Shown piece by piece: positions 5,061 to 54,702 of a stretch of 64,000 nt of DNA. Position 1 is the first letter of the stretch, and the number at the start of each line of letters is the position of its first letter. The notes below the pieces were generated by a model, which searched no databases, was not told the origin of the DNA, and was given only the letters and a program-made list of their open reading frames with translations. Made by a program: the position numbers and the translations under genes. The DNA lies in NCBI GenBank assembly GCA_964658305.1, contig OZ210885.1:15004001-15068000 (forward strand), given 5' to 3'. This DNA is from Leptogorgia sarmentosa (Eukaryota).

Positions 5061-5149
5061 TTCAACATTGCAAAGAGAGAGAGAGCTACTGGTATTACTA
5101 TTAGTTTCTTTTTAGAGGCAACATTTTTCTATATTTTGCTGAAACTGTG

Positions 5150-5302
5150 TACACAATATATATTTTCGTGTTAACATGTCCAACTAATTTGCAATTAATG
5201 GCAATTATAAATAGCATTCATTCTCAACACAATATATATTTTCGTGTTAACATGTCCAATTAATTTGCAATTAATGGCAATTATAAATATCATTCATTCT
5301 CA
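5150..5302. repeat. Tandem duplication of about 77 bp
   Basis: ACACAATATATATTTTCGTG...CATTCATTCTCA occurs twice with two substitutions. Confidence 0.85.
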
Positions 5303-22737: not shown

Positions 22738-22825
22738 ACAAACTTTGATGTACAATAACTACTGTTTGTTACAGTTTAATCACAAAAGAATAATGTGCAA
22801 CAAAATCCACTATGCATTATGTGCA

Positions 22826-26819: not shown

Positions 26820-27190
26820 TAATCAGCCCAATTATAATGTCATAATTACCCTGTTAAGACGTCATTAATTCGGATCTTAAGACGTCATAATTAGTCTGTT
26901 TATGTCGCCACAATTGGCCCTTTAATTATGACGTCTTCTATGTACCAATTATGACATCATAAACACAGTAATGATGACGTCATCATAGGCCTAATATCAC
27001 TGCAAAAGCAGGCTGATTATGATGTCATAAACAGGGTCACTATGACGTCACTAGTAGGTTAATTATGACGTTATAAACAGGGTTATTATGACGTCATCAA
27101 TGGGCCAATTATGAGAGGGCTAATTATGACGTCATCAACAGGGTTATTATCAGGTCATCAAGGGGCGATTATGATGTCATAAACAGGGTA
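26820..27190. repeat. About 23-bp degenerate tandem array with a TGACGTCA core
   Basis: About 12 exact or variant (A)TGACGTCA(T) cores at roughly 23-bp spacing. Confidence 0.8.
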
Positions 27191-27785
27191 ACGATGAGTC
27201 TTGTTTTTGGCATTTGCAACGTTTTTTAAAAAATTTGAAAAATTCGTGAAAATCGTCCAAAAAGCACTCAGTTTTCAATTGGGCGAAGTTTTAAGACATT
27301 TTGTAACTTCCTAAGAACAACTCAATCATCATTCTGTTTCATCATCAGTCATATTTTTTCTTAAATTAAGCACACTCTTCACCAAAGTCTTGTTTTTGGC
27401 ATTTGAAACGTTTTAAAAAAAAAAGAAAAATTAGTCAAACTTGTCCAAAAAGCACTCAGTTTTGAATTGAGTGAATTTAAGACATTTTCCAACTTCCTAA
27501 GAACGGCTCAAACACCTTTATCTAATCTAATGCTATCGAATACGCAAAAACACAATGGTGTTGCCTGGAGCACAATGCGTTTATTGCTGCTGTTCACTCG
27601 AGACGTTACTGATACAAGCTACAGTGGAAATCAACCGCCTCACTGCTACGATATTTACAATGAAATTTGGGGTGAAAACCCCACCTGCATAAAACATGAC
27701 GGAGAATATAATTCTGAGAATGTACTGTCTTACATTATCTCCTGGGAAAACCCCTGCTTAAATAACACACAACCGAGCTGTTCGT

Positions 27786-30780
27786 TCATACTGTTAAATT
27801 GGACGACACTTCATATAGTTCATTATCTAATGGTTCAATGTACTTATTCTTTGATTCGGTGCATTTCCAACCTCTGTGGGCCTGCAAGGATAAATCTGAA
27901 AGATGTCTGCAACCTGGATCAGATGCGCCTCTGCTTCTCAAGCTGTGGGTACCCAACTTACTGAGATCGTCAAAGAAAATGCCCAACTTGGCTTTAATAA
28001 TGTCTTTAGCTGTAGTATAAGATATCCCGCGTGACTTGTGGAAAGACTGCATGCCGTTGCGATGCTGCAGTCGACGAACCATTGGGTGATGTGAGTCGGG
28101 TGGATCAGCCAAAAGACCCAACAGCCTTTCTGTGATAGCCACAGACAAGTTGGTTTACCAGAGCGAGCTATGTGAACCTTGTGCCCTAGCCGAAATTCTT
28201 CAAGGGTAGACTTCGGAGATGGCAAACCAGCCATGGAGTGCCCCCATCGGATACTGTATACAGCGGTGACCACAGGTGAAGGTGTATTGGATGAGTCCAA
28301 CAGATGACGCAAATACAGAGCGACAAACATGGGCTGCGCATGCAAATATTGAACACCGATCTTGGATTTGCACCAGATCTTCCATCGATTCCAGCCGTAA
28401 GCGTAATGCAACGTGGTGCTGCTGGCCTTGGAGTTCAACGCAACTTTAGGGAGGGACAACGCCAAATCAGACAACGATGGATCCACAATTTCAGAACACT
28501 CCTGCCACACGCCAACGTGAAATTCATCCAAATAAATCGGTACATGTATTACGGCTACAAACTATGACTTGCCGCGTGGAGTCAGCCGTCTGTGAATGAG
28601 GCAGAAACAAACAAAAATTGTTAAACATATCACCGAATTGATGTTTACAACAATAATAATGGTATGGCTAAACTGCTATGCTAAACAGCACAATAGAACC
28701 TATAAATCCCCCCATACGTGCATATTCTGAGGTACTAAGGACCCGAGCACCATGGCAAATGTACCTTTTCACAAATAACTCTTGCCGAAAACCGGCGGCA
28801 CTAAACGCCTTGGACCGCACATTCTTAAAATTGAATGGACAACGCAAGCAACTCAAAAGCAGGAGTACCCGTGAAAATTGAGGGTTTTCTCTGATAGGCA
28901 ATCAGCTGACCCTCCCCCGGAATACACATCTGTGAGCATTTGGGTAAAACCATGCTCTGTGATAAATGAAGCATACCGCCCTGGCTCAGGCATAAGCAGA
29001 GGCCAAAATATAGCCGAAGGCCAATACGGCACTATAAGAGTGCCCTTAGCGTTACAACTGCGCATATGACGAATCGTGGGGATGATTAGTGAAACTGGGG
29101 GACACAACCAATTTACATCGTTGGCCCAGTTCTGGGTGAAAGCGTCGACTGCTTCCGTCTCGGGACACCAGAACCGCGAATTGAATCTCGGTAACTGCGT
29201 ATTGTAATTAGACGCAAACCGATCAATGGTGAAAGGACCCCATCTGGCGTGAATCATTCTGAATAAATGTGGCTGAAGTTGCCAGTCGTCTAAATCTACC
29301 GTTTTACTCAATACATCCGCGATTTGGTTGGATGCTCGAGGTATCCATTGAGTATCAAGTTGTATGTCATTTTGAAAGCAAATGCTAAAAATTTGGACAG
29401 CAATGCGCTGGAGCTCGACCACTCGATTACCGACTGACACTATACGACATGCACTCTGACTGTCAGAAAATACTTTCACTCTCATGTGTGTTAAAACTTG
29501 CACTAGCGGTTTCAGCACCAGCAAAACAGCTAACAATTCTCTGTAACCACTTACAGACAGTCTTGGCACTTTGCTCGAGATTCCAGTGCCCATGGATTTT
29601 TAACCCCTGCGCTGCAGCCAAGTGGCCGCCGTAACCCACGCCACTAGCATCGGTGTATACATGCAACGGCGCTACAGACACCTTAGGCCTCAAGGAATAC
29701 CCATTGAGGCAGTTGAGATTGGTTAGCCAGAATCGTAACTCTTCTATTAATGGCGCCGGTAAGCAATCTAAATGACCTGACCACGAATCTCTTTGAGCAA
29801 TCGTGAAGAAAAGCTGCCGAGTGAGAAGCCTAACCGGAGGCCCAACCGCTAAATAGGGAATTTATGAACCCGGCGATTTTTGCCAGTTCGCGAAAGGCAA
29901 CCGACTTGGAGGATAAAACATATTCGATGTTTTTCTTAGCTTTATTCGATGTTTTTCTTAGGAATCTCAAAATGAAAGTTGATGGTGTTGATGATGAGAC
30001 CTAGCCATTCGCCTACTTGCATAGGTTCCCAATGCGATTTGGGGTCATTTGAAACAAAACCTGCAGCAGCTATATCAGATTTTTGAATAGTACTAGCGGC
30101 GAAAGCATCTAATCGCGCTTTGTGCCCCGAAATCCCATCGTCCAAATAAACAAAGGAGGCATGAGACATGCTGCACCATCTCTTCACCAATGGCCTCAAT
30201 AATTTCGTGAAACAATAACACGCTGAAGCTAACCCAAAAGGTAACACTTCGAATGTAAAGTAGCGAACCTTGCCGCTAAAAACCCATGCAAACCCTAGAA
30301 ACTGCCTATGCAGAGGGTAAATGTCCACATGGTGGTATCCCGATTTTAGGTCCCAAGTAAAAAACCAAAAATTTTCCTCAAACAGTTGTGACAGAGATCT
30401 GAGGTCCTCGTATCGGAATGGTTGCTCAGACAAATGCTTGTTCACATTCTGCAGATCTAGAACCAATCTGAGTTTCTTACCTTTGACAACTGACAAAGGA
30501 TTTACACAATGCGGGGGTTGAGCATGCTCGGTGATATAACCCCCTGCCAACAAATCCAATATTGCTTCCTGCACGAAGGCTGGATGATCCCTGGCGCATT
30601 TGTTATTATTTAAGTTACAACTCTCGGGGATTGAGCAAATTGGAATTTTGTAACCCTCATCAACTATGCTCTGAACAAATGGCGAAGCATGCAGAATATT
30701 TTTCCAAAAAGAGGAGCACCTCGCTAGACCCCCACGGACGCTAACGTCTCCGACAGATGGCTTATGCACATCGTCACTAC
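27786..30780 (-). mobile_element. DIRS-order tyrosine-recombinase retroelement, decayed (subgroup uncertain, PAT/Ngaro-like)
   Basis: RT (DLKSGYHH, LPFGL, YLDD; 30769-29942), RNase H (YTDAS, FSDSQ, WIPR), methyltransferase-like domain (IDRFAS...WLCPP) and YR fragments (28531-27786, HSLRSRGAS) with an internal deletion. Confidence 0.85.
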
Positions 30781-31273
30781 TTAATTTAACAAAGACAGGT
30801 CCAACCTGATAATCAGGCTCACTCTGTCACACACATCTACTCAACTGGACGAAGGCTTCGAGCTCGTTGCTAGGCACTGAAAATAACAGTTCCGTTGTAA
30901 ATGACCATACTGTAAACACTGTTGTGAAAAGAAAATTAAAAAAAAAAATTAACATTACGTTATCAAAAGTGTTCTAGACTGGAGTAAATTTGACTGTGTC
31001 ACATGAAAGCAGTGAGAACGAGCTGCATTGTGCAGCTGCTTATGTATGATAATGAACAAAAGAATGCTAATTGCATTTGACAATGCATAATTCTGCATGT
31101 CAAACAGTTAGATATTAATTCTATTTCATCATTAGTTACGTCACTAGGGAGTCACAATGAGATATGCGCGCGCAGATCAAGCCATCAGTTTTTGCACGTG
31201 TAATCAAGTACGTACAGTCAAAAATTTGTTTGTTCAAGCGGAAAATATTAATCTTTGCTTTTCCAATCGTATA

Positions 31274-32342
31274 ATGACCGAGATAACCAACCCTTCCGAT
31301 GCAATTGAAGATGAACTCTTGGATGAGGACGACGAAGAACAAGTTCCCGCTCTGGAAAAGGAGGTGCACGATGTCAAGAGTGTGATGACCAACCTGTCCA
31401 AGTCGCTGCAAATTATGGCGGGATCGATGCAAGCGATGGAAGTTTCATTGAAACGCCTACATTACCCCGGCGAAGAAACGACAAGAAGAGGTTGAAGTGG
31501 TGAGTGATGGCGAGGACGATGAGCTATCACAATCGATAGAACCTGCCAAGGCCGACTCGGCCGAAGGCGATCATTCGGCTCGACTCGAGCAAGATAACAG
31601 CAATGACTCATTGCTTCTGGATATTGAGCAAGATTTCTCCGAACAGGAGGATACTGGCCCTCCCATCTCGCCGAAACTGGCCGACATCATTAATAAAAGA
31701 TGGTCAGAAAAACTAAGTGAGCACAAATTACATGAAAAAAGAGAGAAATATCATCGCCCAACGAATTGCGATCGCGTGATTGTCCCACGAGTAAACCCGG
31801 AAATATGGGCGCGTATTGACCATGGTGCCAAACAGCTTGACCTGCGAGCAACTGCGATTCAGACAAATTTGGTCAAGGTGGGCGCCATTTTAGCCCAATC
31901 TACGGACAAATTATTGTCTTTGGCCCAAACAGACGTATCGCGCCCGGAAATTAAGGCTCTCATCACTCTGAATACCGATGCTATGGCGTTGCTCAGGCAT
32001 GCTTCTTGTGACCTTTCACAACGCCGACGTGAGACAGTTAAACCTCACCTAAATAAAGAATATGCGACGCTCTGTGCCTCGCATGTCCCTATCACTTCGT
32101 TCCTCTTTGGAGATGATCTTCAGGCTCAATTGACAAGCATCAGAGCCACGAACAAAGTGAGTAATACCATTGGGGAAGATCGCCGCGCCTCGCGGAGACC
32201 CCAACAGCCATCTTCACAAGGATGGCAGCAACGGCATAATAGTAGTGGCCGGGGCCATTTTTTGTCCAAGGGCTTCCAGCGGAGGAAACCGCCTCCAAAG
32301 AAAAACCAAGCCCAGTGGAAACCTCAAAGGAAAAACCAGTAA
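31274..32342 (+). pseudogene. gag: DIRS gag-like ORF (frameshift at about 31495)
   Basis: VPRVNPEIW, RRRETVKPHL and FLFGDDL motifs typical of DIRS gag. Confidence 0.8.
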
Positions 32343-34465
32343 CTTTTATTAACAATCCAAATATCTTAAGTCAATTACAGGTTGGTAGCCTGGCATTTAA
32401 TGAAACTAACATTAAACAATACTTCACACATAGAGTGGAGCACTTTCAAGCTGGTCAAATTTCAAGTAATTTTACTCAATGGCAAGCACTTACCTCTGAC
32501 TCAGAGATACTGTCTATAGTAAAAGGCCTAAAAATTGAGTTTAGCACCAGGCCACAACAACATCTCCCAAACTGGCCAACACATTTCAGCCCAGAGGAGA
32601 GAATTATCATTCATGCTGAAATAATTAAGTTACTAGCTAAAGGAGTCATTCAGGTATCTACACATGAACAAGGAGAATATATTTCTCCTATATTTGTGTC
32701 AGAAAAAAAGGATGGGTCATTTCGGATGATCCTCAACCTGAAAAAGCTTAATGTTCATGTGGTTTATCACCACTTCAAAATGGAGTCTATTTGGACTGCC
32801 ATCAGGCTCATGACTCCCAATTGCTTCATGGCCTCCATCGATCTAAAAGACGCATATTATTCAGTGCCAATTGCCCTGGAGGACCAAAAATACTTGAAAT
32901 TTGAATGGGATAACACCCTCTACCAGTTTACATGTTTTCCAAACGGGTTAGCCTGCTGCCCCAGAAAGTTCACCAAGTTGATGAAACCTGTTTTTGCCAT
33001 GCTTCGGCAAATGGGACATCAGTCATCTCCATATATTGATGACTCCTTCTTAACTGGCTATTCCTATGAGGACTGTGCTGCAAATGTTGTCGATACAATA
33101 CAACTCTTTGATAAATTAGGTTTGGTAGCACACCCTGATAAATCAGTGTTCATCCCCACACAGGAATTAGTTTTCTTGGGGTTTGTGTTGAACTCAGTAA
33201 CTATGCAAGTACGCCTTACTCCTGACAAAGCAACGAAACTTGCTAGAGCATGTCAAGACCTGTTGACCAAACCACAGCCTACAGTTAGACAAGTTGCAAG
33301 AGTAACAGGACTACTTGTTTCGAGCTTCCCAGGTGTAGCTTGGGGACCATTATATTATCGGATGCTTGAGGCTGACAAGACTGCAGCCCTGCATTATCAT
33401 AAGGGCAACTTTGACAAACCTATGTCCCTTTCACTCCCTGCCAAGCAAGAGCTTGAATGGTGGATCAATAATATCCCCACTGCATTCAACCCCATACTTA
33501 GAGATGAGCCTAAAATCACTTTAAGAACTGATGCTTCTAAGCTCGGTTGGGGAGGAGTTGTGCAAGACCATTCCACAGGGGGCCTATGGTCAGTAGCTGA
33601 AGCAACTGAACACATTAATTATCTAGAGATGTTAGCAGTCTTTCACTCTTTGAAATCATTTCGGGATTTGCTATATGGAAAGCATGTTAGAGTCATGGTT
33701 GACAATACTACTGCTGAATGTGTGATCAGGCAAATGGGTACAAGCCATGGCTGCAAATTGAATGAATTAGCCAAAGCCATTTGGCAGTGGTGTGCCGAAC
33801 AGGATATTTGGATCACCATGAGCCATATCCCAGGATGTGAAAATACCCAAGCGGATAAGGAGTCTAGGGTTTTCAATTTAAATACTGAGTGGTGTCTAAG
33901 CAAGTCAATATTTAAAATGGGCTGCCAAAAACTGCAGTTTACCCCAAATATTGACCTGTTTGCATCCAGAATTAACCACCAACTAAAACCCTATGTGTCT
34001 TACCGCCCTGATCCTGAGGCAATAGCTGTCAATGCTTTCCACATCAGTTGGACCCACTATTCACTCTATGCATTCCCCCCCTTTAGTGTGATAATGCAGG
34101 TCCTTCAGAAGATTCAGGAAGACCAGGCCACAGGGATTGTGGTAATCCCAAATTGGCCAACCCAAGTTTGGTGGACAAGAACAATGGACATGCTAGTTCA
34201 ACAGCCTGTGTTACTGCCAAGAGACAAACATTTGCTATTTCTACCGAGTCATCCCGAACAGATTCACCCTCTGCACAACAAGCTATGTCTGTTGCTATGC
34301 CACTTGTCAGGCAACAGCTCGGTGAGCAGGGCTTTTCGACAACAGCTGCAAGAGTCATCCAGAGCTCATGGAAGTCCAGTACAAGGAAACAATACTCATG
34401 CTATCTTGAGAAATGGATCAGCTACTGTGGCAAGCGGGGTCTTAATCCCATTTGTTCAAATGTAA
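32315..34465 (+). CDS. pol: DIRS pol: RT, RNase H and methyltransferase-like domain, open frame
   Basis: IDLKDAY, YIDD, TDAS, HINYLE, VDN, IDLFASR and YAFPPF motifs. Confidence 0.92.
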   Translation: METSKEKPVTFINNPNILSQLQVGSLAFNETNIKQYFTHRVEHFQAGQISSNFTQWQALTSDSEILSIVKGLKIEFSTRPQQHLPNWPTHFSPEERIIIHAEIIKLLAKGVIQVSTHEQGEYISPIFVSEKKDGSFRMILNLKKLNVHVVYHHFKMESIWTAIRLMTPNCFMASIDLKDAYYSVPIALEDQKYLKFEWDNTLYQFTCFPNGLACCPRKFTKLMKPVFAMLRQMGHQSSPYIDDSFLTGYSYEDCAANVVDTIQLFDKLGLVAHPDKSVFIPTQELVFLGFVLNSVTMQVRLTPDKATKLARACQDLLTKPQPTVRQVARVTGLLVSSFPGVAWGPLYYRMLEADKTAALHYHKGNFDKPMSLSLPAKQELEWWINNIPTAFNPILRDEPKITLRTDASKLGWGGVVQDHSTGGLWSVAEATEHINYLEMLAVFHSLKSFRDLLYGKHVRVMVDNTTAECVIRQMGTSHGCKLNELAKAIWQWCAEQDIWITMSHIPGCENTQADKESRVFNLNTEWCLSKSIFKMGCQKLQFTPNIDLFASRINHQLKPYVSYRPDPEAIAVNAFHISWTHYSLYAFPPFSVIMQVLQKIQEDQATGIVVIPNWPTQVWWTRTMDMLVQQPVLLPRDKHLLFLPSHPEQIHPLHNKLCLLLCHLSGNSSVSRAFRQQLQESSRAHGSPVQGNNTHAILRNGSATVASGVLIPFVQM

Positions 34466-35303
34466 AAGAAGGCATAAATTTCCTGGCTGAACTTTTCGAG
34501 ATGGGAGTAGGTTACAGTGCTATGAACACAGCTAGAAGTGCACTGTCTTCAATAATGAGTATGTCAGATCAAACTACGTTTGGAGCACATCCCTTAGTCT
34601 GCAGGTTTCTTCGTGGGGTGTTTGTAGAGCGACCAAGCTTACCTAGATACAAAACGATCTGGGATGTTAACACAGTATTAAAATACTTGAAACAATTTCA
34701 CATGGACAAAGAACTCACTCTTCGAGACCTAACACTAAAACTTACTATGCTATTAGCCCTGCTATCAGGACAGAGGTGCCAAACCCTCCACCTTCTTAAT
34801 ATAGAGGATATGAATCTTACTGCTCAACAAAGTACATTTAGGATATGCAAACCAATAAAGACGACGAAGCCTGGATCTAAAGCCTTGCAACTCAATTTCA
34901 AAGCATATCCAGCGGATAAACAGTTGTGTGTGGTACACCACCTTGGGGGGTATTTAGAGAGAACCAGGCTGCTGAGGGGAGATTGTAAGCAACTCCTCAT
35001 CAGTTTCCAAAACCACATGGGGCAGTATCAACTGACACTATATCTAGATGGCTAAAATTGGTTTTGAAACAAGCAGGAATCGACATCAATATGTTTAAAG
35101 CCCATAGTACAAGGGCCGCATCAACATCAGCGGCAGCGTCTGGGAATGTTCCTCTCAGCACTATAATGGCTAGTGCGGGATGCTCTAATGCTAACACTTT
35201 TTCAAAGTTTTATAATAAACCTGTCATTACAGATGAACAGAATTTTGGAGATGCATTACTGCAATCTCTCCTAACTACAAATGGAGACACTTTTAGGGAT
35301 TAA
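34153..35303 (+). pseudogene. DIRS tyrosine recombinase (frameshift at about 35010)
   Basis: SGQRCQ, HSTRAAS and FSKFY catalytic motifs; overlaps pol. Confidence 0.88.
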
Positions 35304-36444
35304 ACAAGTATCTCTTGTATTATATACTTCATATTAAAGTTTGGGTTGTTTGCTGCTTTCTAGTGATTGCACTGCTTTGAAGTCTCATTGTGACTCCCTA
35401 GTGACATAACTAATGATGAAATAGAATTAAAAAATTAAACGAGACTTACCTGAAAGTGTAAGGTGAAGTTTGATTGTAATTCTATGAATTATTAGTAAGG
35501 AACTAGGGAGTCACCCACCCTGTGTAACGCAGATTATTCGTTACATTTCACCCTCCCTTGGAGGTTGCAATCACTATTACCGCTTCAAAGACTGATGGCT
35601 TGATCTGCGCGCGCATATCTCATTGTGACTCCCTAGTTCCTTACTAATAATTCATAGAATTACAATCAAACTTCACCTTACACTTTCAGGTAAGTCTCGT
35701 TTAATTTTTAAATTATCTGCTTAACTGCGTAACACAGATAATAATACTTTCTCAAATCAAGCACACTCTAGAGATTCACCAGAGTATTGTTTTTGGCATT
35801 TGAAACGTTTTTAAAACATTTCAAAAAAGCTATCAGTTGCTTGAATTGGGTGATTTTTTAAGACATTGTCCAACTTCATAAGAACAACTAAAACATCATT
35901 CTTATCAATATAAGCACACTCTAGACTATCGCTATACTGTTATTGTTCACATTTGAAATTTAAAACATCAAAAATTAGTCAAAATCGTCCAAAAAGCAAT
36001 CAGTTGCTTGAATGGCGTCAATTTAAAGACATTTATATTCCATCTTCCTAACAACAACCCAAACATCTTTCTTATCAATGTAAGCACCCTCTAGAGATTC
36101 ACCAGAGTATTGTTTTTGGCATTTGAAACGTTTTTAAAACATTTGAAACATTTGTCTAACTCGTTCAAAAAGCACTCAGTTACTTGAATGGGGTAAAACG
36201 CGTTCCAAACTATTTTTTTGCCACAAAATTTTCCTGCCAAACCATGTTACACATAAATTTGGGACTGTAACTTGAAGAAATTTGTTGCAAAAGTAGAAAG
36301 CTTTTCAACTTTTCTTGCAACTTGCAGAAATTAAGTTTTTCTCTAAATAGGGAGTGTTACACGCTAAAAAATGCCTTGCAACTTGAATCTGGTTATTTTG
36401 CGACACAAGTTGCATGAGAAAAAGCAATGTGTAACAGAACCTTA

Positions 36445-42801: not shown

Positions 42802-44868
42802 TGAAGATAAAATTTAAGGTCCTTTTTCAGTAAAATAAATGACCTAAGAACTGGAAAAATCTTTGAAAATTATTTGAGTTTTATCACTTAATTAATTAAA
42901 GTGTACATAAAATGAAAATTTTCATTGCCTTATCTGAAAAAGCACAAAAAATAGCTAGCAGAAGGCACATTACAGTTCTTTGGCATAATTTTTAGTTCCA
43001 CAGTTATAATGATCAAAGTGACTATATGGCCGGCAGCCGGTCATGGTTTATCAAATACTAAATGGCCGGCAGTTTTTCTGCGCATGTCATTTGCTTGAAA
43101 TAGCCTGGGGACGAGTTTACTTGTTGTTTCAGCCACTTCCTGTATTTCTTCGCGGGAAATATAAATTTTCGCGGAATTCCTTCGATTCATGCTTTGATAA
43201 ATACGGTGCGATCATTTGCATTCTCTGACGGTAATTTTTTGAGTTGTTCAAGCGTGAAATTTATTAATATAAACATGAATTCTTTGCTGCGAGTTGTTGG
43301 TCTTAGAAATCCTATTGGAGGAAATATTTGCTTTATGAATGCAGTAATACAAGGACTGCTCGGAGTGCCTGACTTGGCTGCAGAAGCGAAGGGTCATACA
43401 CATGAAAAAACAAACCCATCAGGTAAGACTAATATATTTCTTTCGATATTTAATATAGTAATCTCAAAGGCCTAAAACTTCTTTCATTAAATTATAGGAT
43501 TCTGCTTTCTTTGTGAATTAAAATATGCATTGTCCTGTTTCCATACTATGACCAACGTTAAGCCGATACAACTATCATCGTTGTGGCAAGCACTTCCAGG
43601 TACGGTTTGGTGTTTCAAAATTTAGTATAGCCAACCCCAAACATCTCAAACATGTCTGTGTTGGCATAAGCCCAATAATAAGCCAAACTGAAAGAGTGAT
43701 TTGATTGGCCAATGGAATGCAAGTGTGGATAAACACCAAACTTTTCTGGTGTTATGATATAGGCTCGTCCCAGGGCTGAATCCAGCAAAGATGCCTTGGG
43801 AACAGGGATGGCCCTGAAAAAAAGAGGGAGTCCAAAACAACCCCTCCCTGTTCCCCTGCATGGCCATTTTAATTAGACGCACCAAACTGCAATGATCTTG
43901 TGTGACGACTGGAAGTCCTGCAACCTTTGGGGGCATAGGAAGCCAGGCAGTCTCGTTCCCCAAGCCTGCGATATCCTTGGGAAGGAAACAGAGGCTTTGC
44001 AATAATCTGTTGCCAGAAGCCAGGAATTCTGGCTAAGTTGAACTGCACATGTATTCCTTATCAGTGGCCAATCAGATTCCTACCTGAAACAGCCTTCGTT
44101 TCCTTCCCAAGGATAGCAGGCTTGGGGACTGAGATTGGAAGCTGGGGATTGAGATTGATAGCCCGGGGGGCTGCCCCCGTTCCCCCATTATAAATTCTCA
44201 ATAAATTGAAACATATTGTATATAATATTAATTAATAATGTATCTGCAATTGTCCATTTTTATTAATTTCATTTTTTGTGTATCAATATTTGTTGTGCTG
44301 AGCTTCCCAGGGGCATTTTCCTGTTGAGAGGTTCCATTTTCAAGCTATATCAGTGGCCTTGTTTATAGTTTCTTTAATATTCTGTCTAATATTTTATTTT
44401 AGAATTTGGAGGTCTTCAATATGGCTACCAACATGATGCACAGCAATTTTTACTTGGTGTATTAAAAAAATACCCAACACTGCAAAGTTTATGCCAAGGA
44501 GAGCTAATAACAAATGGTATGGGTATGATATATTTAACAATATAATTGAATGAGTTTGGGCATGATATGAAGAATTATCAAGCTGCTTGCTGTTTGCTGT
44601 TATTAGCCAAAGCAAACTGAGGGCTTGATAATTCTTCATATTGTGCATTTTTTATATTGACTCTTTCATGTCAATTTCCCAATGTGAATGTGAAAAATCC
44701 ATATTTGGTTAGCCAGTGAGTTGATATGGCAATTTCACAGTTGCCTGTTAGCCTGTTAGCCAATCAAAAACCAGGTTTTTTTTAAATAAATATTACCTCA
44801 TCACCATCTGCAGAAAACCAACTGACTTGTATTAACCTGTTCAGTGGCAGCACTCTTCCATTGTATAT

Positions 44869-44987
44869 ATATATTTAACAATTATACCATGAGCTCGAGT
44901 CGTATATGGCTGATAGCCAACTCGGCTGCGCCTCGTCGGCTATCAGCTCATATACGACTCGAGCTCATGGTATAATTGTTAAATATA
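44869..44987. repeat. About 118-bp hairpin (palindromic MITE-like) repeat
   Basis: TATTTAACAATTATACCATGAGCTCGAGTCGTATATG...CATATACGACTCGAGCTCATGGTATAATTGTTAAATA. Degenerate relatives at about 44530-44645, 48945-49060 and 62187-62240. Confidence 0.85.
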
Positions 44988-45084
44988 GTAATTCTTGTCA
45001 TTCACTAGTTACCTGTTACAAATGCAAAGGAAAGTCTGCAAGCAAGGATGAATTCAACTCTTTGTCTATTCCTTTGAAGGTGTG

Positions 45085-45250
45085 TAAGAACAAACTATTT
45101 GTTCATGCTACTCTGTGAGTGCAGACTCCACAACAGGCAAGTTGAAAATCAGCTTGACCACAGTGGGATATTCAAACTTGTAACCTTGGGTTTGCTAGTC
45201 CTGTGCTCTCCAACTGGGCTACAAGGTCAAGTCAGTTTGAGTTGGACTTA
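45085..45250 (-). mobile_element. Degenerate tRNA-derived SINE
   Basis: Minus strand reads TAGCCCAGTTGGAGAGCA (A box)...AGTTTGAATATCCC (degenerate B box), followed by a non-tRNA body. Confidence 0.55.
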
Positions 45251-46756
45251 GTACATACCCAAGGTTGTAAGTGATAAGATTGTATACATCATGTCTCCAA
45301 TTTTTTTTTGTAAAAATATAGTGCTACTCCTTATGTTGTGGGACAGGCAATTTTTAGCACCCCGAACCCTCCTTTGAAATAATGTTGTCAATTACTTTTA
45401 ATTGATTTTCTCTTTAATAAAGGCCAGTCATGAGGTATCACTCTGTGAATATCTGGCAGAATGCAAGATAGAAGGCTTGTCATACTGTGAAACGTAATGC
45501 TCAAATTTAATAGAAAACTGCCTTAAGTTAAGGACAAAATACTCAGTATTAGTACTACCAAAAAGGGTAACTAGTGATTTGCTATTTCCTAACCTCTTAT
45601 GATAGGTGTAGTGGTTTCTGATTGGCTCTCCTAATATTCGAGGTCTAGGGGTAGGGATAGCCAGAGAGGAGCTGTCAGTCAGAGAAAACGATGCAGTTTC
45701 CATAATCACCAATGACTTTTAATTTGTCATTTTAGATGTGGTTCAATGGATTAAAAATCCATGTTTAAGGATATAAGTAGACGTCCCAAAGTTTTGATTA
45801 TTCATTTAAATAGGTGTTGAATTTTAAATTGTTTTGTGTGTGAATTAAATAGTTTAATATCCCTATGTTTATAATATCTGTAAACTTCAGTAATTTTTGC
45901 CTTGCGCATTTGGTAACTTTTGCAGGCTTGAACAATTGCTTGCTTATAAACACGCGGACCATTACACGTATAACTTTTAATTGCCACTTGAAAATGATGC
46001 AAGAAGCATCGAAATGTCGTTGTAATAAGATAAAATTATTAGCGCTATTTTTAATAAGTATTAGCTATTAGTTTTGTATATATAATTAAACGCTGTTATA
46101 ATTTTATAGATTTGCTTTTCGCGAAGAAGAAATTGTGAAACTAGAAGATGAGTGTTTATTTCCTGAACATATATCTTTATCAGCATCACCATATCATTCC
46201 TTGGCTGACGACATTGATGTCAGTGATACTGTAAGAATACTAATAAACTAAGGCGTGTCAAAATTACTGTCTCTTGTCGATACAAATTACGTTAATTTTC
46301 CATTCAAATTTTAGGAGTCCTGGTACGAGCTTACAGGAGTTATTGTGCACCAAGGATCACAGGCACACAGTGGACATTATGTGGCCTATATAAGGAATAA
46401 AACCACAAATGAGTGGTTTTTGGCAGACAACGAAAAGGTCCATGCCCATGCAACATGATACATGTACTGTACTGATACATGTACTGTACTGTAAATTTGT
46501 TTCAAGAACAATTCGTATCTTAAAAAGATGATCCAAATCTAATCTTGTATTTTTACATAATTATTTACTATATTTAGATAACTGAATGCACATATTCAGA
46601 AGTCCAAAGGCAGCAGGCGTATATGCAACAAAGGTGCTTATTCCATGGCACTGAGTTTTCTTAAACGTATAAATAAATTAAGCCCCTGAATTAAACTATT
46701 AAAGTAATGCCCTGAAACTAGCTATAATTACATGCGATGTTTTATTGTTTTCTCAG

Positions 46757-49700
46757 TCCTCTACTAGATTGCCTGACAGAAAAGAAAAGCCGGTAGATGT
46801 GGCAAGTGAAAATGGTACAGTAGTAACTGCCTTCGTGTAATATGTCGTGCTATAAATGTTAAATTTGGTGCTTGCAAAAACTTAATTTGTTTTTTTGTTC
46901 ACAGATGAAGACAATATTGTATCTGGGTCTGGGGAGAAAACTGTTGTTGAGGGCTTTGGCCAGAAAATATCAAACCAAACACTCAATCTGTTAAGTCATG
47001 GTCATAGGTTGAATGACGAAGTGAGTTACAAACATCTACGTACAGCACTATAGATATGAATTTTATGTTATATAGTAGCAACATACTAATATAGTTAAAA
47101 CGTCAGTTATCTGTAAGTATTATGAATAACTACTCGGTCATTCACTTTTATAGATTATAAATTTCTATCTTAAGCTTTTGGACGAGTTTGCCTTCAACTA
47201 CATGGTAAAGTACAGTATAACTTACTATCTGTGTTATTACATGTATGCCACTGTTATACTCCACACTAGCTATATTGTTTGGCAAATAGAATAACAGCTA
47301 TTATTGCATAATAGCTCTGGATATGAGGTATTCTTTAAGTAAGCAGGATATTAGCTCATATCCTGCTAGTAGAGAAAAACAAAATGCCGGCTCAAACTGA
47401 ATTTCCGAAGTTTTGCGAGAAAAAAACCCCAAGTTGTTCGCTTTGTATAGCTTTTACATGATTAAAATAAGTTCAACGTACAGATCGGTAGCCTCGTGGG
47501 AATATAGTACAAATACGATATTTATACAGTGTATTCTCGCAAGGCTTCTGATGTGTTAAACCTATTTAAAATTATGATTTTTCCTTAAAAATGCTAAATG
47601 CCCCCGACCAGGATTCATAATAGTTTTGAAACGTTCTCTGATCGTAAAATTATATTAGATACTTTCTACCTACAGGGGGTTGCCAAAAAAAAAGAGCCCC
47701 CTTGTCTCACACGGAAATAAACAAGGTTTATATAAGTCATATTCCTTATGTCGTAAAAAAAGGATTGCACGACAAATGAGATGTAGAGAAATAGTCCTAT
47801 TTCACTCTAAGAACACAACATTTGGTAAGCAATATGATATCCGCAACCTTTGATGATCTGTGGACTGCACCCAAGGATGTTCTAGACAAGTCTATGAACG
47901 TATTCATGGTTGTTATTCTTCCAACCCTGACTCCTCAAATAACTACTCCTCAATTCGAGATGAACATTTCATATCTAGTCTTCTCTCCTGGCTCCGCAAC
48001 AAATTCTAAATGGGATTGGGATCTGGGCTTTGTGTTAGCAAAAGAACACTTCAATTTTCAATTAAAATTGATTCCTCAGATAATATTCCACAATACGAAT
48101 CGTTTCTAGGAGTCCTTTTCATGCCGCCATATTAAGTTATCTCCATTGAGTAATCGGACTGAAGATTGTTTGAATTAAACTTTTCGGTTTATTTTTGGCA
48201 GAGACGGCGTTTTAGTCCATGGTGATATTTGGTTACATATATGTGCGCTTTATTAGTGGCTGTGCGAGGTCAGCGATATTTGGGCAAACATTCGAAAGTT
48301 GATAATCTCTTAACAGCCACTCTCATCAAAAGCCTGTCTTCATGAATCCTTGTCTTGTGCGGTGTTCCAGAACCTGGCATTCATCCAGCAATCTCACTTT
48401 CCTTCATACGACTTTTTTTGCCCAAGAATAGCTGAGTCTATATTCGTTGCTACTTTCCAAGCACTCGTGTCTAGCCAAGCACTCGTGTCTAGCACGGGAT
48501 GAGTCCAATATTGAAGGTTTCTAGCTATCTTCTTCTTAGCCCTTTCTTCTCATTTGCTTCCTCAATGGCAACAGTTTCACATTGATTACAGTGAGATTGG
48601 CTAAAACCCATCACTTTTAGCACGAACTATTTGTTGAATGCTTGTGAGGCAATATATTTTATCCATACCGCATGTGCGTCTACATTTACACAAAAAGCCC
48701 TTTTTAAATAGGGGGGCTCTTTTTTTTTGGCAACCCCCTGTAGATATTACACTTTTATTAGATACGAGCTTTCGACTGCCAGTCTGCAGTCTTGGACAGG
48801 TAAAATGACACTATTTAATAGTGTCAGAACGTTTCAAAACTTTATTATCAATGATTTTTCCATTATTTTTAGCGCTCAAATTGTGGATTTATGATTATTG
48901 TCTGTGACAACCAGGCTGACAACCTTAATTGAATTAGCTGTTTAATAAAACAGTTATTCCACTCACTCTCGTCGAATATGCGCGATAGCCGATTCAACGC
49001 TAGGCGCCTCATCAGCTATCAGCTCATATTCCATTCGAGTTCGTAGAATAACTGTTATATGTATATTACTCTCTTTTACAGGACCAAATCAATAAGAAAT
49101 GTGCTTTTCTTGAAACCTTCTATTTTACCAAGTTTAAAAAAGAAGGATGGAGTAAATCATTCATTAGATGGCTTGAAAAGGTTACAATTTTTAACGGTTT
49201 CAAATGAAATCAATAAATAACACATACATAAACTTATATATGATTACATTATTACAGGGAGGTTGTTTCAACAAGGAGCAAATTTTCATACCAATTCATG
49301 ACAATCTCCACTGGACAGTTTGTGTAAGCAATTATATCTGTAAATAAAACATATATAGTAACCGCGAACAATATGTCATATTATATAATTATTTATACAT
49401 GGTTAATATCGTATTACAGGTTGTTAATAAGTCCCAATGTCAGATCACATATTATGATTCATTGCTGGAAGATAATGTTGTAGGATATACATGTTGCAAT
49501 CATTTGAAAACTGTTGGGTAATTATATGGTATTATGGTTGACGATACAGTTCTGATCATTGCCTTGTAGACTAGATGCATGCAGTTTATAGAAATATTTT
49601 CTACTTAATTGTCGTTTTTAGAGAATTATGCCTATAGGCCTACTAATGAAAAGTAACTAGGCTTATGTCATGGTTATATATTGTATTTCTTTCACCATCA

Positions 49701-50246
49701 TAAAAATGTCATTTTTTAGGCAACTGGTAGAAAATCTGTTTGAAGATGTTTCCGCTTCCGCTTGGAATTACAAGATTGCGCAAGTACAGTACACAAAATC
49801 TTTCAGTTCTCAATTCGTTCACTATTTGCTTATTGAACCTTAAGGCTGGACCAATTGTCCGACTATAGCTGTCCTACGGGGGTTCAAGCATCACAATATT
49901 TTTCTACATTAAATATAGGGGCTACCAAAACAAGGCAATGGTATTGATTGTGGAGTTTTCGTGTGTCAGGTATTGTGAATGAAAATTTGAACAAGTATTG
50001 AAACGTGTTGTATGTCATAATGTACCAAATATTTTTTCTACATTTCCCCTTGCAGTATATCAAATGTATCGTTACCGGCAAATCATTTTCATTTTCTCAG
50101 GTTAGTGCCATAATTCACAGATTTACACAATTTACTTATTTGAATTCTTCAAGATATAACATTTTGACTCATTCGTCATTCCAGTCTGACATTAAACAAC
50201 TACGTGAATCTATGGTTCAAGAAATTATGGCCAAGAAGTTATTCAG
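46757..50246 (+). CDS. Ulp1/SENP-like peptidase C48 domain (exons 10-19 of the MULE gene)
   Basis: RLNDEIINFYL, IFIPIHDNLHWT (His), YYDSL (Asp), QGNGIDCGVFVC (Gln/Cys). All introns are phase-compatible. Confidence 0.9.
47673..48740. mobile_element. Non-autonomous Tc1/mariner-like element in MULE intron 12
   Basis: About 30-bp TIR CAGGGGGTTGCCAAAAAAAAAGAGCCCCCT, flanked by TA on both sides. Confidence 0.85.
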
Positions 50247-50365
50247 GTGCAAAATGTTTGAGATTACTTGTACATTATACACTTCCTATTTTTTTTCTAA
50301 TTACTCCTAAATGACTGAAGTGTTACATAAACGGAAGTATACAAAATGTCATTGTTCTTTTCCAG

Positions 50366-53312
50366 AGGGGCGGAGGAACAATCAGGTCGGTCGCCAGTTA
50401 GTCTACAAATGCTTTCCGTTCATATCACAGCCTCTGACACTAACGACAATGGAAGCAACATAAACTCAACCCAATCATCTGCAACACGGCGAAACAGTGG
50501 TCAAACTCCAATTTCAAATGCACCCACACATGGGTACAAAAAAAGCAAGCACGAAGGCGATACAGTCAACAAAACGGAAGTGAGACCTCACGTCAAGAAA
50601 GAACGCAACGAAGAAACCCCATTATTGAAAATTGGTCAAACCTCAATTCTAAATGCTCCCAAAATGAAGACGTCAACATGTGGGCAAAAAAGTAGCAAGC
50701 AGGAAGGCGAAACAGCCAACAAAACGAAAGTGAGACCTAAACATAAAAAAGAACAAGACGAAGAAAACCCATTATTGAAAATTGGGCATAGATTCTATAA
50801 CATTGAAGAAGTAGAAAGGGCTAAAGAGCTTTACGAACAAAAACATTTTTGTGAGTTATGGAAACGAGATTCAAGGACTCTGCAATCTGCAAAGAAACGT
50901 GTTCCAAAGCGTGTCAAACATGCAGAAATATCGCTACAGTACTATTCTCTGAAACTCTCGTGTAAATTTGGAGGAAAAGCCATAGATTCAAAAAAAGTGA
51001 GGAAAAGGAAAACAAACTCATTCAGGCAAGGGTGCCCTTTTGAGATTTATCTGGTTTTGTCCGAAGATGGAAAGGCATTAGAAGTATCCAATGTAACCCT
51101 GAATCATAACCACTCTCCATCGAAAGAATTATACGACCACCTTCCTCGTCAGAGACGCCTTGCGAAAGATTTACGACAACATGGCAAGGACGTCTTACGT
51201 TTGAAAGCTAACAGTAAGATGTTCCAACAAGAAATCGAGTCTACAACCGGTCATGCAATAACGTTGAAGGACATAGCAAACTTGAAGTACGAAGACAAAA
51301 AGAAAAGTAACTCAAACGATATAGAAGAAGTTGTAAATTATTTGAAAACTCAAGATGGAGCTAATGTGGATGTTATTGTGGACCAAGAAGGGGACTTTAA
51401 GTGCTTGCTCTATCAGGACAGATATATCCAAAATGTTTACAGTTCTTTTTCAGAGCTCATTATGGTTGATGCTACGTACAAGCTTCTGGATTTACGCATG
51501 CCTGTTTACATTATGTTAGCGATAGACGGAGAGGGTTTAAGTGAAATTGTGGCCATATTTATAGTCTCTGAGGAAACTGATTTAGTAATAACTTCAGCAG
51601 TGGAATCGTTCAAAAAACATAATCCCGCCTGGAGCAAAACAGTAACAATTTTCTCGGACAAAGACTTTAATGAACGGCAAGTCTTCACCAAATGTTTTCC
51701 TCAAGCTAAACTATCACTTTGCCTATTTCACACCCTTCGTAGCTTCAAACGAGAAGTCACAACTGAAAAAATGGGAATTACAACAGATGAAAGGATACGA
51801 TGCTTGGAAATTGTTACCCAGATTGTATACTCAAACTCACCTGCAGAGTATGATCGTCATGTTAAAAAACTCAGGGACACAAAACTTCAATCTGTTATTC
51901 AGTACTACGAAAAAAACTGGGAACCGATAAAAGAGCAATTTGTTACGTGCTTCAAAAACTCTATTTTAACATTTGGGGAAACCACTACTAATCGGTTAGA
52001 AAGTACGAATGCCAAAATCAAAAGCGTTTGTTCAAAGTACAGCAGCCTCCGCCAGTTCTTCGGTGAAATGTTTATTGTTCTGGGAGCTTTACGAAATGAG
52101 AGACGCCACAAGCAGCTCATGGCACTTTCATGTTTACCTACAGATTCTCAAAGTGGAGACACAGACATGCAAAAATATAGGATGTTACTGACACCGTATG
52201 CATACAAGAAACTTGAGCACAAAGTGAAAGTAACAAAAGTTATGCCAGACGGCTCAATTGTAGTTAACAGTTCAATCAATTCATCACTCAAGGCTTCACC
52301 TGCGTCTTGTGAATGCAACTACGTTACGATGATAGGACTTCCCTGCAGACACATTCTAAAAGCCAGGCGTATTCATAGGATGTCACGGTTTGACGAATCA
52401 CTGGTGTCTAAAAGATGGACAAGGTGCTATTACAGGACGACAACGAAAATGAAACCAACAGAAAATGTGTCAAGCACAGCTATGTTTGAAGTTACTAACA
52501 TAAAAACTGAAGAGTCCAAGTGTTTAACTCAAGCACAGAAGTATAGAAAAGCAGGCAAATTGACAAACTCTTTAGCTTCTCTTGCAAGCGAAGGTGGAAT
52601 GAAAACCTTTTCGCATAGGATGATACTTCGAAAACTATTAAACATATGGATGGCAGGCAAAAATGTCAATCTTAGTGAAGTAAATTCAACAGAAACCATG
52701 AAAAGAAAATGCCCCAGTCCTTTGAAAAACAAAGTTCCAAGTGATGGCACCGGTACCAAAAATGACAAAAATGATAGCAAAGATAAAACCTTCACGCATA
52801 TAAAGATGCCATTGAAAATGCTAAAGCATGGTAGACCAAAAGGATCTAAACTAACGGTCATAGGGTTACCTAAAAAGAAGGCAAAAAAGTCAAAGATAAT
52901 TCAGCCTTTCTGCAAAATTAAAGCAGAAGATAAAGATTGCATCTTGTTGGAATGCTTTGTGCAACCGTTATCTGCCAAAAAAGCCATGGATGGAAAGTTA
53001 TTGGCAAAACCCGAAATAACTGTCAGACTTAATTGTATTCCAGACATGATAAAAGATGAAGACAATGTCGATATACATAGAGTTGAAAAGTACTTTACAA
53101 ATGAGGCATGGGATCATATTCTGGATCTGGTTGCAAAAACTAAAAAAGAAGGTAAATGGATATGCCGTGGATGCAGGAAGGTCATCAAATGTGAAGACAG
53201 CGTTTCATGTGATAGATGTCTTAATTGGTATCACCTACAGTGCACATCACTCAGCAAGATGCCAAAGAAACGAAACTGGTTTTGTGCACATTGCATTTCA
53301 AAATACACATAG
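50366..53312 (+). CDS. MULE transposase with SWIM and C-terminal PHD finger (terminal exon 20)
   Basis: GCPF...HNH DNA-binding domain, MVDATYK, FSDKDFNE, LCLFH, TTNRLES, SWIM CEC...LPCRH and PHD CRGC...CDRC..WYHLQC...WFCAHC. Confidence 0.95.
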
Positions 53313-54702
53313 ATTATATATACAGTAGTTTAGCTTTGGCAATTCTGACAAGCACAGATGCTTTGTACTCACCCAGAGGAATTTGGCCACACCCCCAAAA
53401 GTCCCCCCCCCCCCCCGACACATTTCTTGTATATTTTGATTTGATATTTGATTATTCTTACTACTAAATCTGTAAAATTGCGAATATTATGTCTCAGATG
53501 CTGCCGTGCAGGCCTAGAAAACAACTTTTTGAACGTTTTCTTTGGCCTTTCTGGGCATTTCCACCAGGCCCTGGCCAAACCAGGCAGAAGCAACCCCCAA
53601 CCCAAATATTTACCCCCTTCTCCCTAAACTAAAATATATAATCTGTCTCAGGTGATTCACTATAGCATAAATACCAACAAAAAACAGGAAGTCCTGTGAT
53701 AAAATGAGGCTTAACCTATTAAGTGCTAGTACAGTAGTGCTCCCCCCTTGATGAAAAAAATTGTCCGGCATTACATAGAGTAAAATAATAAAGTGGGTGC
53801 ACCAGCGTGCAATGTGACTCAATGGGTTAATACTTAATAACAACCTTTGTAATGATCCAATGACTGTAGTATATCTAGAGGCTTGGAGTATCAATCCTCA
53901 AATTGACTGGCACATTATGACCAACATATATCAAAGTGACTATAATATATAGTGAATAAATTTATATTGTATAGAAATATAGTTATATGTTGCGACGAAA
54001 TTTATAGTGTACAGAAATATAATTATATGTTGAGACTTGGGACAAAACTTTCGGAAAAATGTCTGCGCAAACCGCATTTTGCGCCTTCAATGTTATAATT
54101 ATAGTTTAGTTTAGACTTTAATATTAGTATACGACTGATAAAGTACAAAATTACAAAGTTTTAGTTCAGTGATACAGTTTGTTTTGATTTAATCCGATAT
54201 ATGTATGTTTATCCGCCATTGATTATTTCGTATAGGCACTACAATGACGTCAACACGATTGCTGTACCGTAGTACTGGGAACAAGTTAAGAGCAAATGAC
54301 ATGCGCAGAAAAACTGCCGGCCATTTAGTACTTGACAATTAATTACAAAGTGTTTATATTAATAAATTTCACGCTTGAACAACTCAAAAAATTACCGTCA
54401 GAGAATGCAAATGATCACACCGTATTTATCAAAGCATGAATCGTAGGAATTGCGCGAAAATTTATATTTCCCGCGAAGAAATACAGGAAGTGGCTGAAAC
54501 AACAAGTAAACTCGTCCCCAGGCTATTTCAAGCAAATGACATGCGCAGAAAAACTGCCGGCCATTTAGTATTTGATAAACCATGACCGGCTGCCGGCCAT
54601 ATAGTCACTTTGTATAATGATTTAGAGCAAGAAAAAATATGGCACAAACAGCTGATCCAATACAAATTGTTAACATCAAAAATATAAGACATGCATTATC
54701 TA

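Follow-up and report, generated by a model that had tools for sequence, protein, structure and literature searches.

A Mutator-like transposon of Leptogorgia sarmentosa with predicted USP and Ulp1-type protease domains ahead of a MULE transposase

The window, a stretch of 64 kb from contig OZ210885.1 of Leptogorgia sarmentosa, contains one copy of an 11.6-kb element (whole element 43014-54612) bounded by long terminal inverted repeats (TIRs). The two arms have 3 mismatches over 262 nt, and the same nine bases, TATAATGAT, stand on both sides as an exact target-site duplication (TSD). Long TIRs, a TSD within 8-11 bp and a DDE transposase whose second Asp is followed by CxxH place it among the Mutator-like elements (MULEs), as the original prediction had proposed. 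The start codon had been put at the inner edge of the left TIR, and the ATG at 43275 does begin on the final base of that repeat; for this reason the promoter is likely to lie inside the left TIR. The window is rich in transposons, and the MITE-like element nested in intron 12 has a contig depth far higher than that of its host in the DNA-like run X3. The features are collected in Table 1.

Table 1. Features of the element, in positions of the window
Feature	Position	Strand	Basis or remark
Left target-site duplication, 9 bp	43005..43013	.	Identical 9 bases 3' of right TIR
Left TIR, 262 nt	43014..43275	+	Last base is A of start codon
Complete USP/C19 catalytic domain, exons 1-9	43275..46633	+	Pfam and motifs
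Linker and Ulp1 start (LNDE), exons 10-11	46757..47020	+	10/11 junction decides USP fusion
SENP1-like Ulp1/C48 catalytic domain, exons 12-19	47154..50246	+	Similarity, joints, tree
Nested 1.08-kb element, MITE-like, 48-nt imperfect TIRs, TA at both ends	47667..48746	.	In intron 12
Exon 20: low-complexity linker, ZSWIM3_N/FAR1-type, MULE DDE core, SWIM, PHD	50366..53312	+	Pfam, alignment
MULE DDE core	D 51468, D 51657, CxxH 51720-51729, E 51999	+	D, D, C, H, E invariant in 9/9 aligned rows
SWIM	52308-52352	+	Pfam 18.6 vs cut-off 19.6
PHD, C4HC3 pattern	53163-53294	+	Pfam 23.8 vs cut-off 24
3' UTR (likely)	53313..53960	+	X6 contigs extend to 53927; AATAAA at 53955
40-nt unit, about two copies	53941..54036	.	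Repeat scan
Additional partial TIR copy, subterminal, 48 nt	54291..54338	-	Repeat comparison
Right TIR, 262 nt	54351..54612	-	Inverted-repeat comparison
Right target-site duplication, 9 bp	54613..54621	.	Equal to left copy

The predicted model has 20 exons; all 19 introns start with GT and finish with AG, and the phases fit everywhere except at exon 9/10, as had been claimed. The window was compared with contigs, each an assembly and not a single molecule, from X3, which is possibly the window's own source, and from X6 and X7, which are RNA-like by behaviour (spliced public contigs) and come from one study. The TAA foreseen at 45752 is present in the window, and the suspected deletion at the end of the USP is a loss of 10 nt in exon 9: X3 has 10 extra bases behind 46621 and the X6/X7 joint shows the same letters. 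Both lesions are missing from X3 and X6 and are specific to the window copy. With the lengths found in X3, all junctions of the model are in phase and give a frame of 1,523 aa (4,572 nt including the stop). Exon 20 of the window copy is shorter than in the runs by 18 nt at 52209 and 3 nt at 52622. With 40 of 289 difference rows listed, the 34 tabulated differences between window and runs include 18 non-synonymous codons, 4 synonymous ones and 10 non-coding changes. Because non-synonymous codons so outnumber synonymous ones, and because the runs keep the usual Asp-Asp behind the USP His box, the window copy looks decayed and the family intact. The copy in the window is a recently inserted, slightly decayed jumping gene. 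X3 depth is similar (about 220-400) over the USP, Ulp1 and transposase exons, against 11.7 in a bin of the right flank. This contrast hints at several copies, although contig depth gives no copy number; the version in the runs differs from the window copy.

Pfam was run exon by exon, and domain calls were made from single exons, local comparisons and Dendronephthya proteins. Of 13 small exons put through Pfam, 10 matched no family alone. The USP is recognized by a Cys box in exon 1, a QHDAQ box in exon 3, two CxxC pairs in exons 4-6 and a His box in exon 8. The UCH profile matches exon 8 above its cut-off (E 1.7e-11) and exon 1 below it (E 3.2e-4). The predicted C19 Cys and His boxes are both there (codons 43329 and 46375), together with the catalytic Asp at 46426. 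Exons 3 and 4, each searched alone, gave no USP match, and theirs are what we take to be USP motifs. Cleavage of ubiquitin conjugates would be the predicted activity.

In the Ulp1 domain the predicted catalytic residues are likewise present (His 49309, Asp 49456, Cys 49949), with Gln 49931 in addition. The Peptidase_C48 profile matches exon 14 weakly (E 0.022). The call comes instead through the octocoral Dendronephthya gigantea, whose protein P0029 is 42% identical to the domain over 193 aa and has a C48 domain of its own at E 3.8e-25; in its protein P0038 the C48 domain has SENP1 as its best match (E 1.4e-28). The C48 domains of window and Dendronephthya form one clade (100/99). Capture of Ulp1 would be old, since it is shared with an octocoral. 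The Trp of the WLND motif is replaced by Arg in the window, and the string LNDEIINFY, encoded over exons 11-12, recurs unchanged in Dendronephthya. Peptidases of clan CE may cut ubiquitin or NEDD8 in place of SUMO; cleavage of SUMO would be the predicted activity here.

Exon 20 scores above the Pfam cut-offs for ZSWIM3_N, ZSWIM1-3_RNaseH-like and MULE (52.8 bits vs 27.6). The two ZSWIM matches, the 19 introns and the transcription could all be those of a domesticated, single-copy, ZSWIM3-like host gene that is no longer mobile. We consider this very improbable in view of the near-identical long TIRs and exact TSD, the intact DDE residues, a broken copy in the window with an intact version in the runs, Dendronephthya relatives at several loci and the wealth of transposons in the window.

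The RNA-like contigs bear on how the parts are joined. GT..AG joints at the model coordinates are found in X6/X7 for introns 1, 2, 7, 8 and 11-18; with 12 of 19 so placed, the splicing is not due to chance. Joints with replaced letters fit the model at introns 9 and 19, and the sizes of contigs fit model splicing at introns 5 and 6. No spliced form of introns 3 and 4 was seen in X6/X7 contigs, neither run has any depth over exon 4's 3' part, and some contigs retain intron 1, 3, 4 or 19. The pieces of record 2 of X6 (1,035 nt) add up to exons 7-19, so that one contig runs from the USP His box through to the end of Ulp1. In both X6 and X7 the junction of exons 19 and 20 keeps the frame, as predicted, and the Dendronephthya models are alike in this.

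The junction that decides the fusion of the USP is less simple. X6 and X7 join 46815 to 46901 across intron 10, where the model has 46814 to 46905, so that their join keeps five bases more. Exons 10 and 11 then total 185 nt in both runs (contig sums 1,035 and 268), which is out of frame; counted from where exon 10 starts, the USP frame would end after 50 codons. The X6/X7 contigs show no joint at intron 10 that stays in frame. These contigs carry a 6-nt insert over exon 10/11 that is absent from X3 and for that reason likely derive from a variant copy. X3 is identical to the window over 46736-47355, and there exons 10 and 11 are in frame with the model donor, which scores highest among 14 GT/GC candidates in 46790-46860. 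A programmed frameshift was considered, but no X XXY YYZ site was found at exon 10/11 by eye. The original claim of a single fusion therefore stands at the Ulp1-transposase junction but not in the RNA-like contigs at the USP/Ulp1 junction, and the transcripts proposed as a check across exons 9-10 and 19-20 agree with it at introns 9 and 19 but not at intron 10.

It is possible, if rather unlikely, that one transcription unit yields several products. The intron-10 splice would end a free USP of ~350 aa, retention of intron 19 would end a protease-only product, and Ulp1-transposase, or transposase alone from the ATG at 50346, would come from other isoforms; action of the USP in trans would resemble that of Kaonashi/VANC, which are genes of their own in plant MULEs. 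The out-of-frame join occurs in both X6 and X7, but no GT-AG splice can make it from the letters of the window or X3, and the insert points to a variant copy. Contigs retaining intron 19 are about as deep as spliced ones (4.8 and 4.6 vs 6.2 and 3.3), and the retained intron has a stop at 50308 followed by that ATG in frame, although such contigs may be pre-mRNA. Exons 1, 2 and 3 each have an end phase that suits exon 11, yet no exon-skip joint was seen in the contigs. The Dendronephthya models begin at Ulp1, as several products would have it. On the RNA-like join, exons 10-11 have no ATG in the Ulp1 frame, and the identity of LNDEIINFY in Dendronephthya argues for translation in that frame from an upstream start. 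A single polyprotein of USP, Ulp1 and transposase is the likely product, as judged from the frame.

Relatives share the Ulp1 and transposase but not the USP. Three Dendronephthya RefSeq models at three loci, all 'uncharacterized' (XP_028418842.1, XP_028413631.1, XP_028400643.1), combine C48 with the same transposase; like the window they have C48 - ZSWIM3_N - MULE in one protein, with a PHD in P0038, at identities of 42% for C48 and 53-57% for the transposase. Unlike the window, the protein models of the cluster show no UCH domain in 7 of 7 members. No USP was found among 271 proteins compared, nor any USP or SENP1-like exon at 25 metagenome loci, the nearest of which have <3 kb of upstream sequence. 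The odd N-terminus of P0029 was rejected as a USP His box in another frame, since 13 and 54 of 100 shuffles scored equally high. Scans of viral and prokaryote contigs gave no relative, and the Dendronephthya C48 domain, compared with proteins of 637-2029 aa, had 13 matches, none with UCH or MULE; two of the 13 are Adineta proteins with OTU+C48. For P0038, the Atlas yielded no more than leads (top score 0.90).

As none was found in relatives, the USP looks, on weak evidence, like an intron-containing gene that was added later. A stronger form of this idea, which we regard as improbable, is that the USP exons stem from a host gene captured in recent times and ride as a Pack-MULE-like passenger in front of an ordinary Ulp1-MULE, spliced because they lie behind the TIR promoter and useless to the element. 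An intron-rich structure is typical of genomic capture, and the RNA-like contigs are joined out of frame. A useless passenger is harder to reconcile with a USP that is complete in all its catalytic motifs and begins exactly at the TIR edge, or with the open fused frame in X3. Contigs from X1 and X2, from another study and diverged by several per cent, also cover USP exons 1, 3 and 7-8, Ulp1 exons and transposase, albeit unlinked. Nor did exon 8 reveal a close cellular relative: alone in a large protein search it gave no candidate, which is weak evidence, and its best match among solved structures reached E 6e-6 only.

The reading we favour, and hold with modest confidence to be the correct one, is a young Mutator-like family with USP and SENP1-like domains ahead of MULE-SWIM-PHD, likely in one 1,523-aa protein that would free the transposase, or proteins at cut and insertion sites, of ubiquitin and SUMO. 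Transcription would start in the left TIR and intact copies would yield one frame. The DDE core would excise the element and insert it with duplication of 9 bp; TIR binding may fall to the N-terminal FAR1-type and SWIM zinc domains, and the PHD may read histone tails. Tethered Ulp1 would strip SUMO, the mark through which hosts bring in silencing complexes and SUMO-targeted ubiquitin ligases. The USP, also tethered, would strip the ubiquitin chains that otherwise send the transposase to the proteasome, and transposition would likely be shielded in this way against control by the host.

Eight of 29 transposase relatives tested carry a different N-terminal domain with an Ulp1/SENP-like fold (pLDDT 77.6, best Foldseek E 4.8e-8); it occupies the same N-terminal place in sister elements, with His, Asp and Gln invariant. 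A fixed slot with two different Ulp1-fold enzymes would argue for selection over accident. The broadest reading, which is speculative and on balance unlikely, makes the 1,523-aa protein a self-contained SUMO/ubiquitin eraser at the element's own insertion sites. Splicing at introns 10 and 19 would decide which product is made, a free deubiquitinase, a protease-only form or the full transposase, and across the clade the N-terminal protease slot would be kept and refilled with different enzymes. If true, transposition in animals would require the removal of SUMO and ubiquitin. Unrelated transposons often gain such proteases, and in PMC2836005, PMC13317346 and PMC9741609 their role in transposition is only proposed. 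Here the family is young and transcribed, its catalytic residues are intact in the runs, and one unit carries both kinds of enzyme, a setting in which the cysteines could be tested singly and together. Annotation based on open reading frames misses transposase genes with 19 introns.

The original prediction had also considered the architecture new. No report of USP and Ulp1 both ahead of a MULE transposase was found in the literature, but the parts are known, as Ulp1-MULEs, a C19-transposase fusion and Helitron UCH/C48. Trichomonas vaginalis XP_001314237.1 joins an IS5-like transposase_11 to Peptidase C19 (PMC2836005); like the window it has a USP-type domain and a DNA transposase in one protein, but its transposase is of another superfamily and Ulp1 is lacking. 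Helitron-like elements carry OTU, VTD, UCH or Peptidase_C48 (PMC11417382, PMC9741609), the Helitron-borne DUBs are catalytically active, with activity shown for VTD domains (PMC9741609), and Ginger1 occurs with OTU or Ulp1, once with PHD (PMC2836005). These too are transposon-borne ubiquitin/SUMO proteases, sometimes two kinds per element; they differ from the window in having rolling-circle or integrase-type enzymes in place of a MULE, and UCH is reported there in a separate ORF. With the MULE-related Rehavkus/NOF-FB elements (9-bp TSD, PHD finger; PMC6446971 Table 1), whose Atlas cluster has C48 in 45% and PHD in 34%, the window shares the PHD finger and TSD length. It differs in lacking a minisatellite array before the 3' TIR, where only about two 40-nt copies are found, in its ZSWIM3-type MULE by Pfam profile and in its N-terminal proteases; our transposase tree, a quick version with long outgroup branches, has no Rehavkus sequence among its members. 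Kaonashi/KI-MULE (Vandal) elements are defined as non-TIR plant MULEs with Ulp1 in a gene apart from the transposase (PMC13317346), whereas the window has long TIRs and an Ulp1 that in-frame splicing connects with the transposase. Mutator elements bearing Ulp1 are described from hydra, lancelet, Arabidopsis (Kaonashi/Vandal), maize, rice and melon, where Ulp1 is proposed to act in transposition or anti-silencing (PMC2836005, PMC13317346). The window resembles them in its pairing of MULE with C48/Ulp1, and differs in the added USP (C19), in the N-terminal position of both proteases over 19 exons and in its long TIRs.

The Mutator-like element is real, young and spliced, and two complete protease domains precede its transposase. 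Identical 9-base sequences adjoin both ends as a target-site duplication, and the end sequence of the terminal inverted repeat (TIR) occurs only twice across the whole window. The 20-exon model originally predicted is borne out: every intron is GT..AG, phase is kept save at exon 9/10, and there is a stop in exon 6 at 45752. Within it, a USP (C19) protease occupies exons 1–9, a Ulp1 (C48) protease exons 11–19, and transposase, SWIM and PHD exon 20. USP and Ulp1 very probably both lie within the mobile, transcribed unit. A domesticated gene is a rival reading, but these termini and the transposase residues described below make it unlikely.

Features of the element, its relatives and the rest of the window (window positions unless a locus is named)
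Feature	Position	Description
Mutator-like element	43014-54612	11,599 nt
TIR arms	43014-43275 and 54351-54612	262 nt each, 3 mismatches between arms
Short repeat, intron 3	44872-44983	part of a common short repeat, ~110 nt
MITE-like insertion, intron 12	47667-48746	1.08 kb, 48-nt TIRs
Intron 19	50247-50365	stop at 50308; ATG at 50346
Likely nested transposons	3291-13927	82-nt inverted arms, 10.5 kb apart; inside, DUF6589, helicase and aspartyl-protease/DUF5641 frames
Second DUF6589 and helicase pair	21715-24274	
Retroelement-type frames	28853-35055	reverse transcriptase, RNase H, Dam-methyltransferase-like
Dispersed repeats	26328-27461 and 35782-36197	diverged, opposite orientation, satellite-like
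Ulp1-fold domain, N-terminal on sister MULE transposases	L002:827-1774; L003, L004, L015; P0005-P0008, P0010, P0013, P0014, P0083	unannotated

Exon 20 is an open frame in which the Pfam domains ZSWIM3_N, ZSWIM1-3_RNaseH-like and MULE score above cut-off, and SWIM and PHD slightly under it. The D, D, CxxH and E of the transposase show no variation (9/9 aligned transposases), and the SWIM Cys/His residues are kept in eight of the nine. Searched as single exons, exons 1 and 8 match Pfam UCH and solved USP structures, exon 1 matching the latter only at E ~0.4. Exons 3 and 4, each searched alone, gave no USP match; we take QHDAQ in exon 3 and CxxC in exon 4 to be USP motifs.

Splicing was read from contigs of X6 and X7, public runs on two samples of one study whose library type is off record and which are RNA by their behaviour; such contigs omit minor forms and do not equate to single molecules. 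Among the joints listed, introns 1, 2, 7, 8 and 11–18 are removed at the GT..AG positions of the model, joints with replaced letters are compatible with introns 9 and 19, and introns 3 and 4 have no spliced joint. Introns 5 and 6 agree with the lengths of contigs, and part of exon 4 is without depth. The pieces of one 1,035-nt X6 contig (record 2) sum exactly to exons 7–19, so that the USP His box and the entire Ulp1 stand on one contig. The predicted in-frame splice of exon 19 to exon 20 is seen in both X6 and X7. Contigs retaining introns are present for introns 1, 3, 4 and 19, the last in both runs. Intron 19 holds a stop in the exon-19 frame and an in-frame ATG seven codons ahead of exon 20; its retention could yield transposase-only or protease-only products, as the rival of separate products through splicing would have it.

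The original prediction was of a single fusion polypeptide. The Ulp1–transposase junction is in frame, but the exon 10/11 join of X6 and X7 is not. Both join 46815 to 46901 and have six additional bases near 47000; by two length sums made independently (1,035 and 268), exons 10 and 11 come to 185 nt, which breaks the frame between USP and Ulp1. With this join the USP would end 50 codons into the exon 10–11 stretch, and no ATG is available to the Ulp1 frame within exons 10–11. The join may be a genuine alternative product. The simplest reading is a variant, defective copy in these samples, since the join is impossible from the window letters by GT-AG splicing and X3, a DNA-like run, is identical to the window across 46736–47355. 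With this one direct observation against it, a single USP–Ulp1–transposase polypeptide is still somewhat favoured.

The window copy itself is not intact. Seven runs contain the window stretch or part of it, and five of these were compared; two with a small share of it are coral metagenomes. X3 contigs continue through introns and, relative to the window, have 10 additional bases behind 46621, 18 and 3 in exon 20, and two different letters at 45751-2, so that the stop disappears. X6 has the same changes. With X3 lengths all model junctions are in phase, giving 4,572 nt including the stop, or 1,523 aa. Behind the USP His box the runs have Asp-Asp and the window Asp-Asn. The comparison covers 34 of 289 differences, with six others left out (in the nested element of intron 12, or in X1/X2 only); among the 34 are 18 non-synonymous codons, four synonymous codons and 10 non-coding sites. 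These differences fit neutral decay of the window copy, assembly error being a possible alternative. The window may itself come from X3.

The X3 element contigs end at the edges of the intron 12 insertion, itself at very high depth in X3, so that X3's main version likely has it too; the X3 contig skips the intron 3 repeat, which is therefore likely specific to the window copy. Elsewhere in the window, the frames at 28853-35055 are of kinds that occur in DIRS-type and other retroelements.

The transposase search gave 36 matches, the nearest named being from an octocoral and a jellyfish. Together with the coral metagenome runs, these suggest that the host is a cnidarian, probably a coral. The octocoral match, from Dendronephthya gigantea, has Peptidase_C48 ahead of the same transposase. 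In the Dendronephthya cluster C48 occurs in six of seven members, at three loci, and UCH in none of the seven; P0038 has the complete order C48-ZSWIM3_N-MULE-PHD, and its best solved match is SENP1. The spliced Ulp1 of the window is 42% identical to that of Dendronephthya over 193 aa, and the two form one group (support 100/99) in a tree of 17 C48 domains. An intronless N-terminal domain missed by Pfam is found in 8 of 29 other transposase relatives and at four metagenome loci; its His, Asp and Gln are invariant, a Cys is present as well, and its predicted model (pLDDT 77.6) best matches Ulp1/SENP (E 4.8e-8). Two more distant ZSWIM3-type transposases (P0117, P0183) have C48 at the C-terminus. 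With C48 or a Ulp1-fold domain in Dendronephthya, sister and distant transposases, the Ulp1-fold protease is a recurring component of this clade. In their placement after LNDE, after the His strand and before the Gln loop, several Ulp1 introns probably agree with those of vertebrate SENP1, a correspondence that would suggest that genomic DNA was captured. In P0117 a PWP3A-B_C domain follows the C48, and two Adineta steineri proteins (P0259, P0260), possibly transposon-borne, combine OTU and Peptidase_C48.

The USP, unlike the Ulp1 fold, does not appear to recur in the clade, and could be a passenger. It had no match in 271 retrieved proteins and 25 metagenome loci, an absence that is weak evidence because neither set covers spliced exons or upstream DNA well. 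The X1 and X2 runs belong to another study; their contigs, short and unspliced, lie over exons 1, 3, 7–8, 10–12, 17–19 and 20, several per cent divergent and unlinked.

From MULE biology, the DDE core would act by cut-and-paste with a 9-bp duplication. The tethered SENP-like domain would strip SUMO, and the USP ubiquitin; the target would be the transposase itself or, alternatively, chromatin and repair proteins around the break. Proteins can be degraded by a SUMO-then-ubiquitin route, and silencing can depend on SUMO, which makes the pair of proteases logical; a protective role is predicted at even odds.

No description of USP and Ulp1 on a MULE transposase was found in a literature search of open-access main texts. 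The main text of PMC6446971 nowhere mentions 'ulp', 'protease' or 'ubiquitin', and the available portions of PMC13359780, PMC12973397 and bioRxiv 2024.12.02.626372 hold nothing further on USP. In the available text of PMC13317346 the function of Vandal Ulp1 is called unknown. Among Mutator elements, those of hydra, lancelet and plants have Ulp1 according to PMC2836005, which further gives Ulp1 or OTU for Ginger1 and lists an IS5-like transposase joined to Peptidase C19 in Trichomonas. Helitron-like elements with UCH and Peptidase_C48 are described in the available text of PMC11417382, and in that of PMC9741609 Helitron VTD domains are active DUBs.
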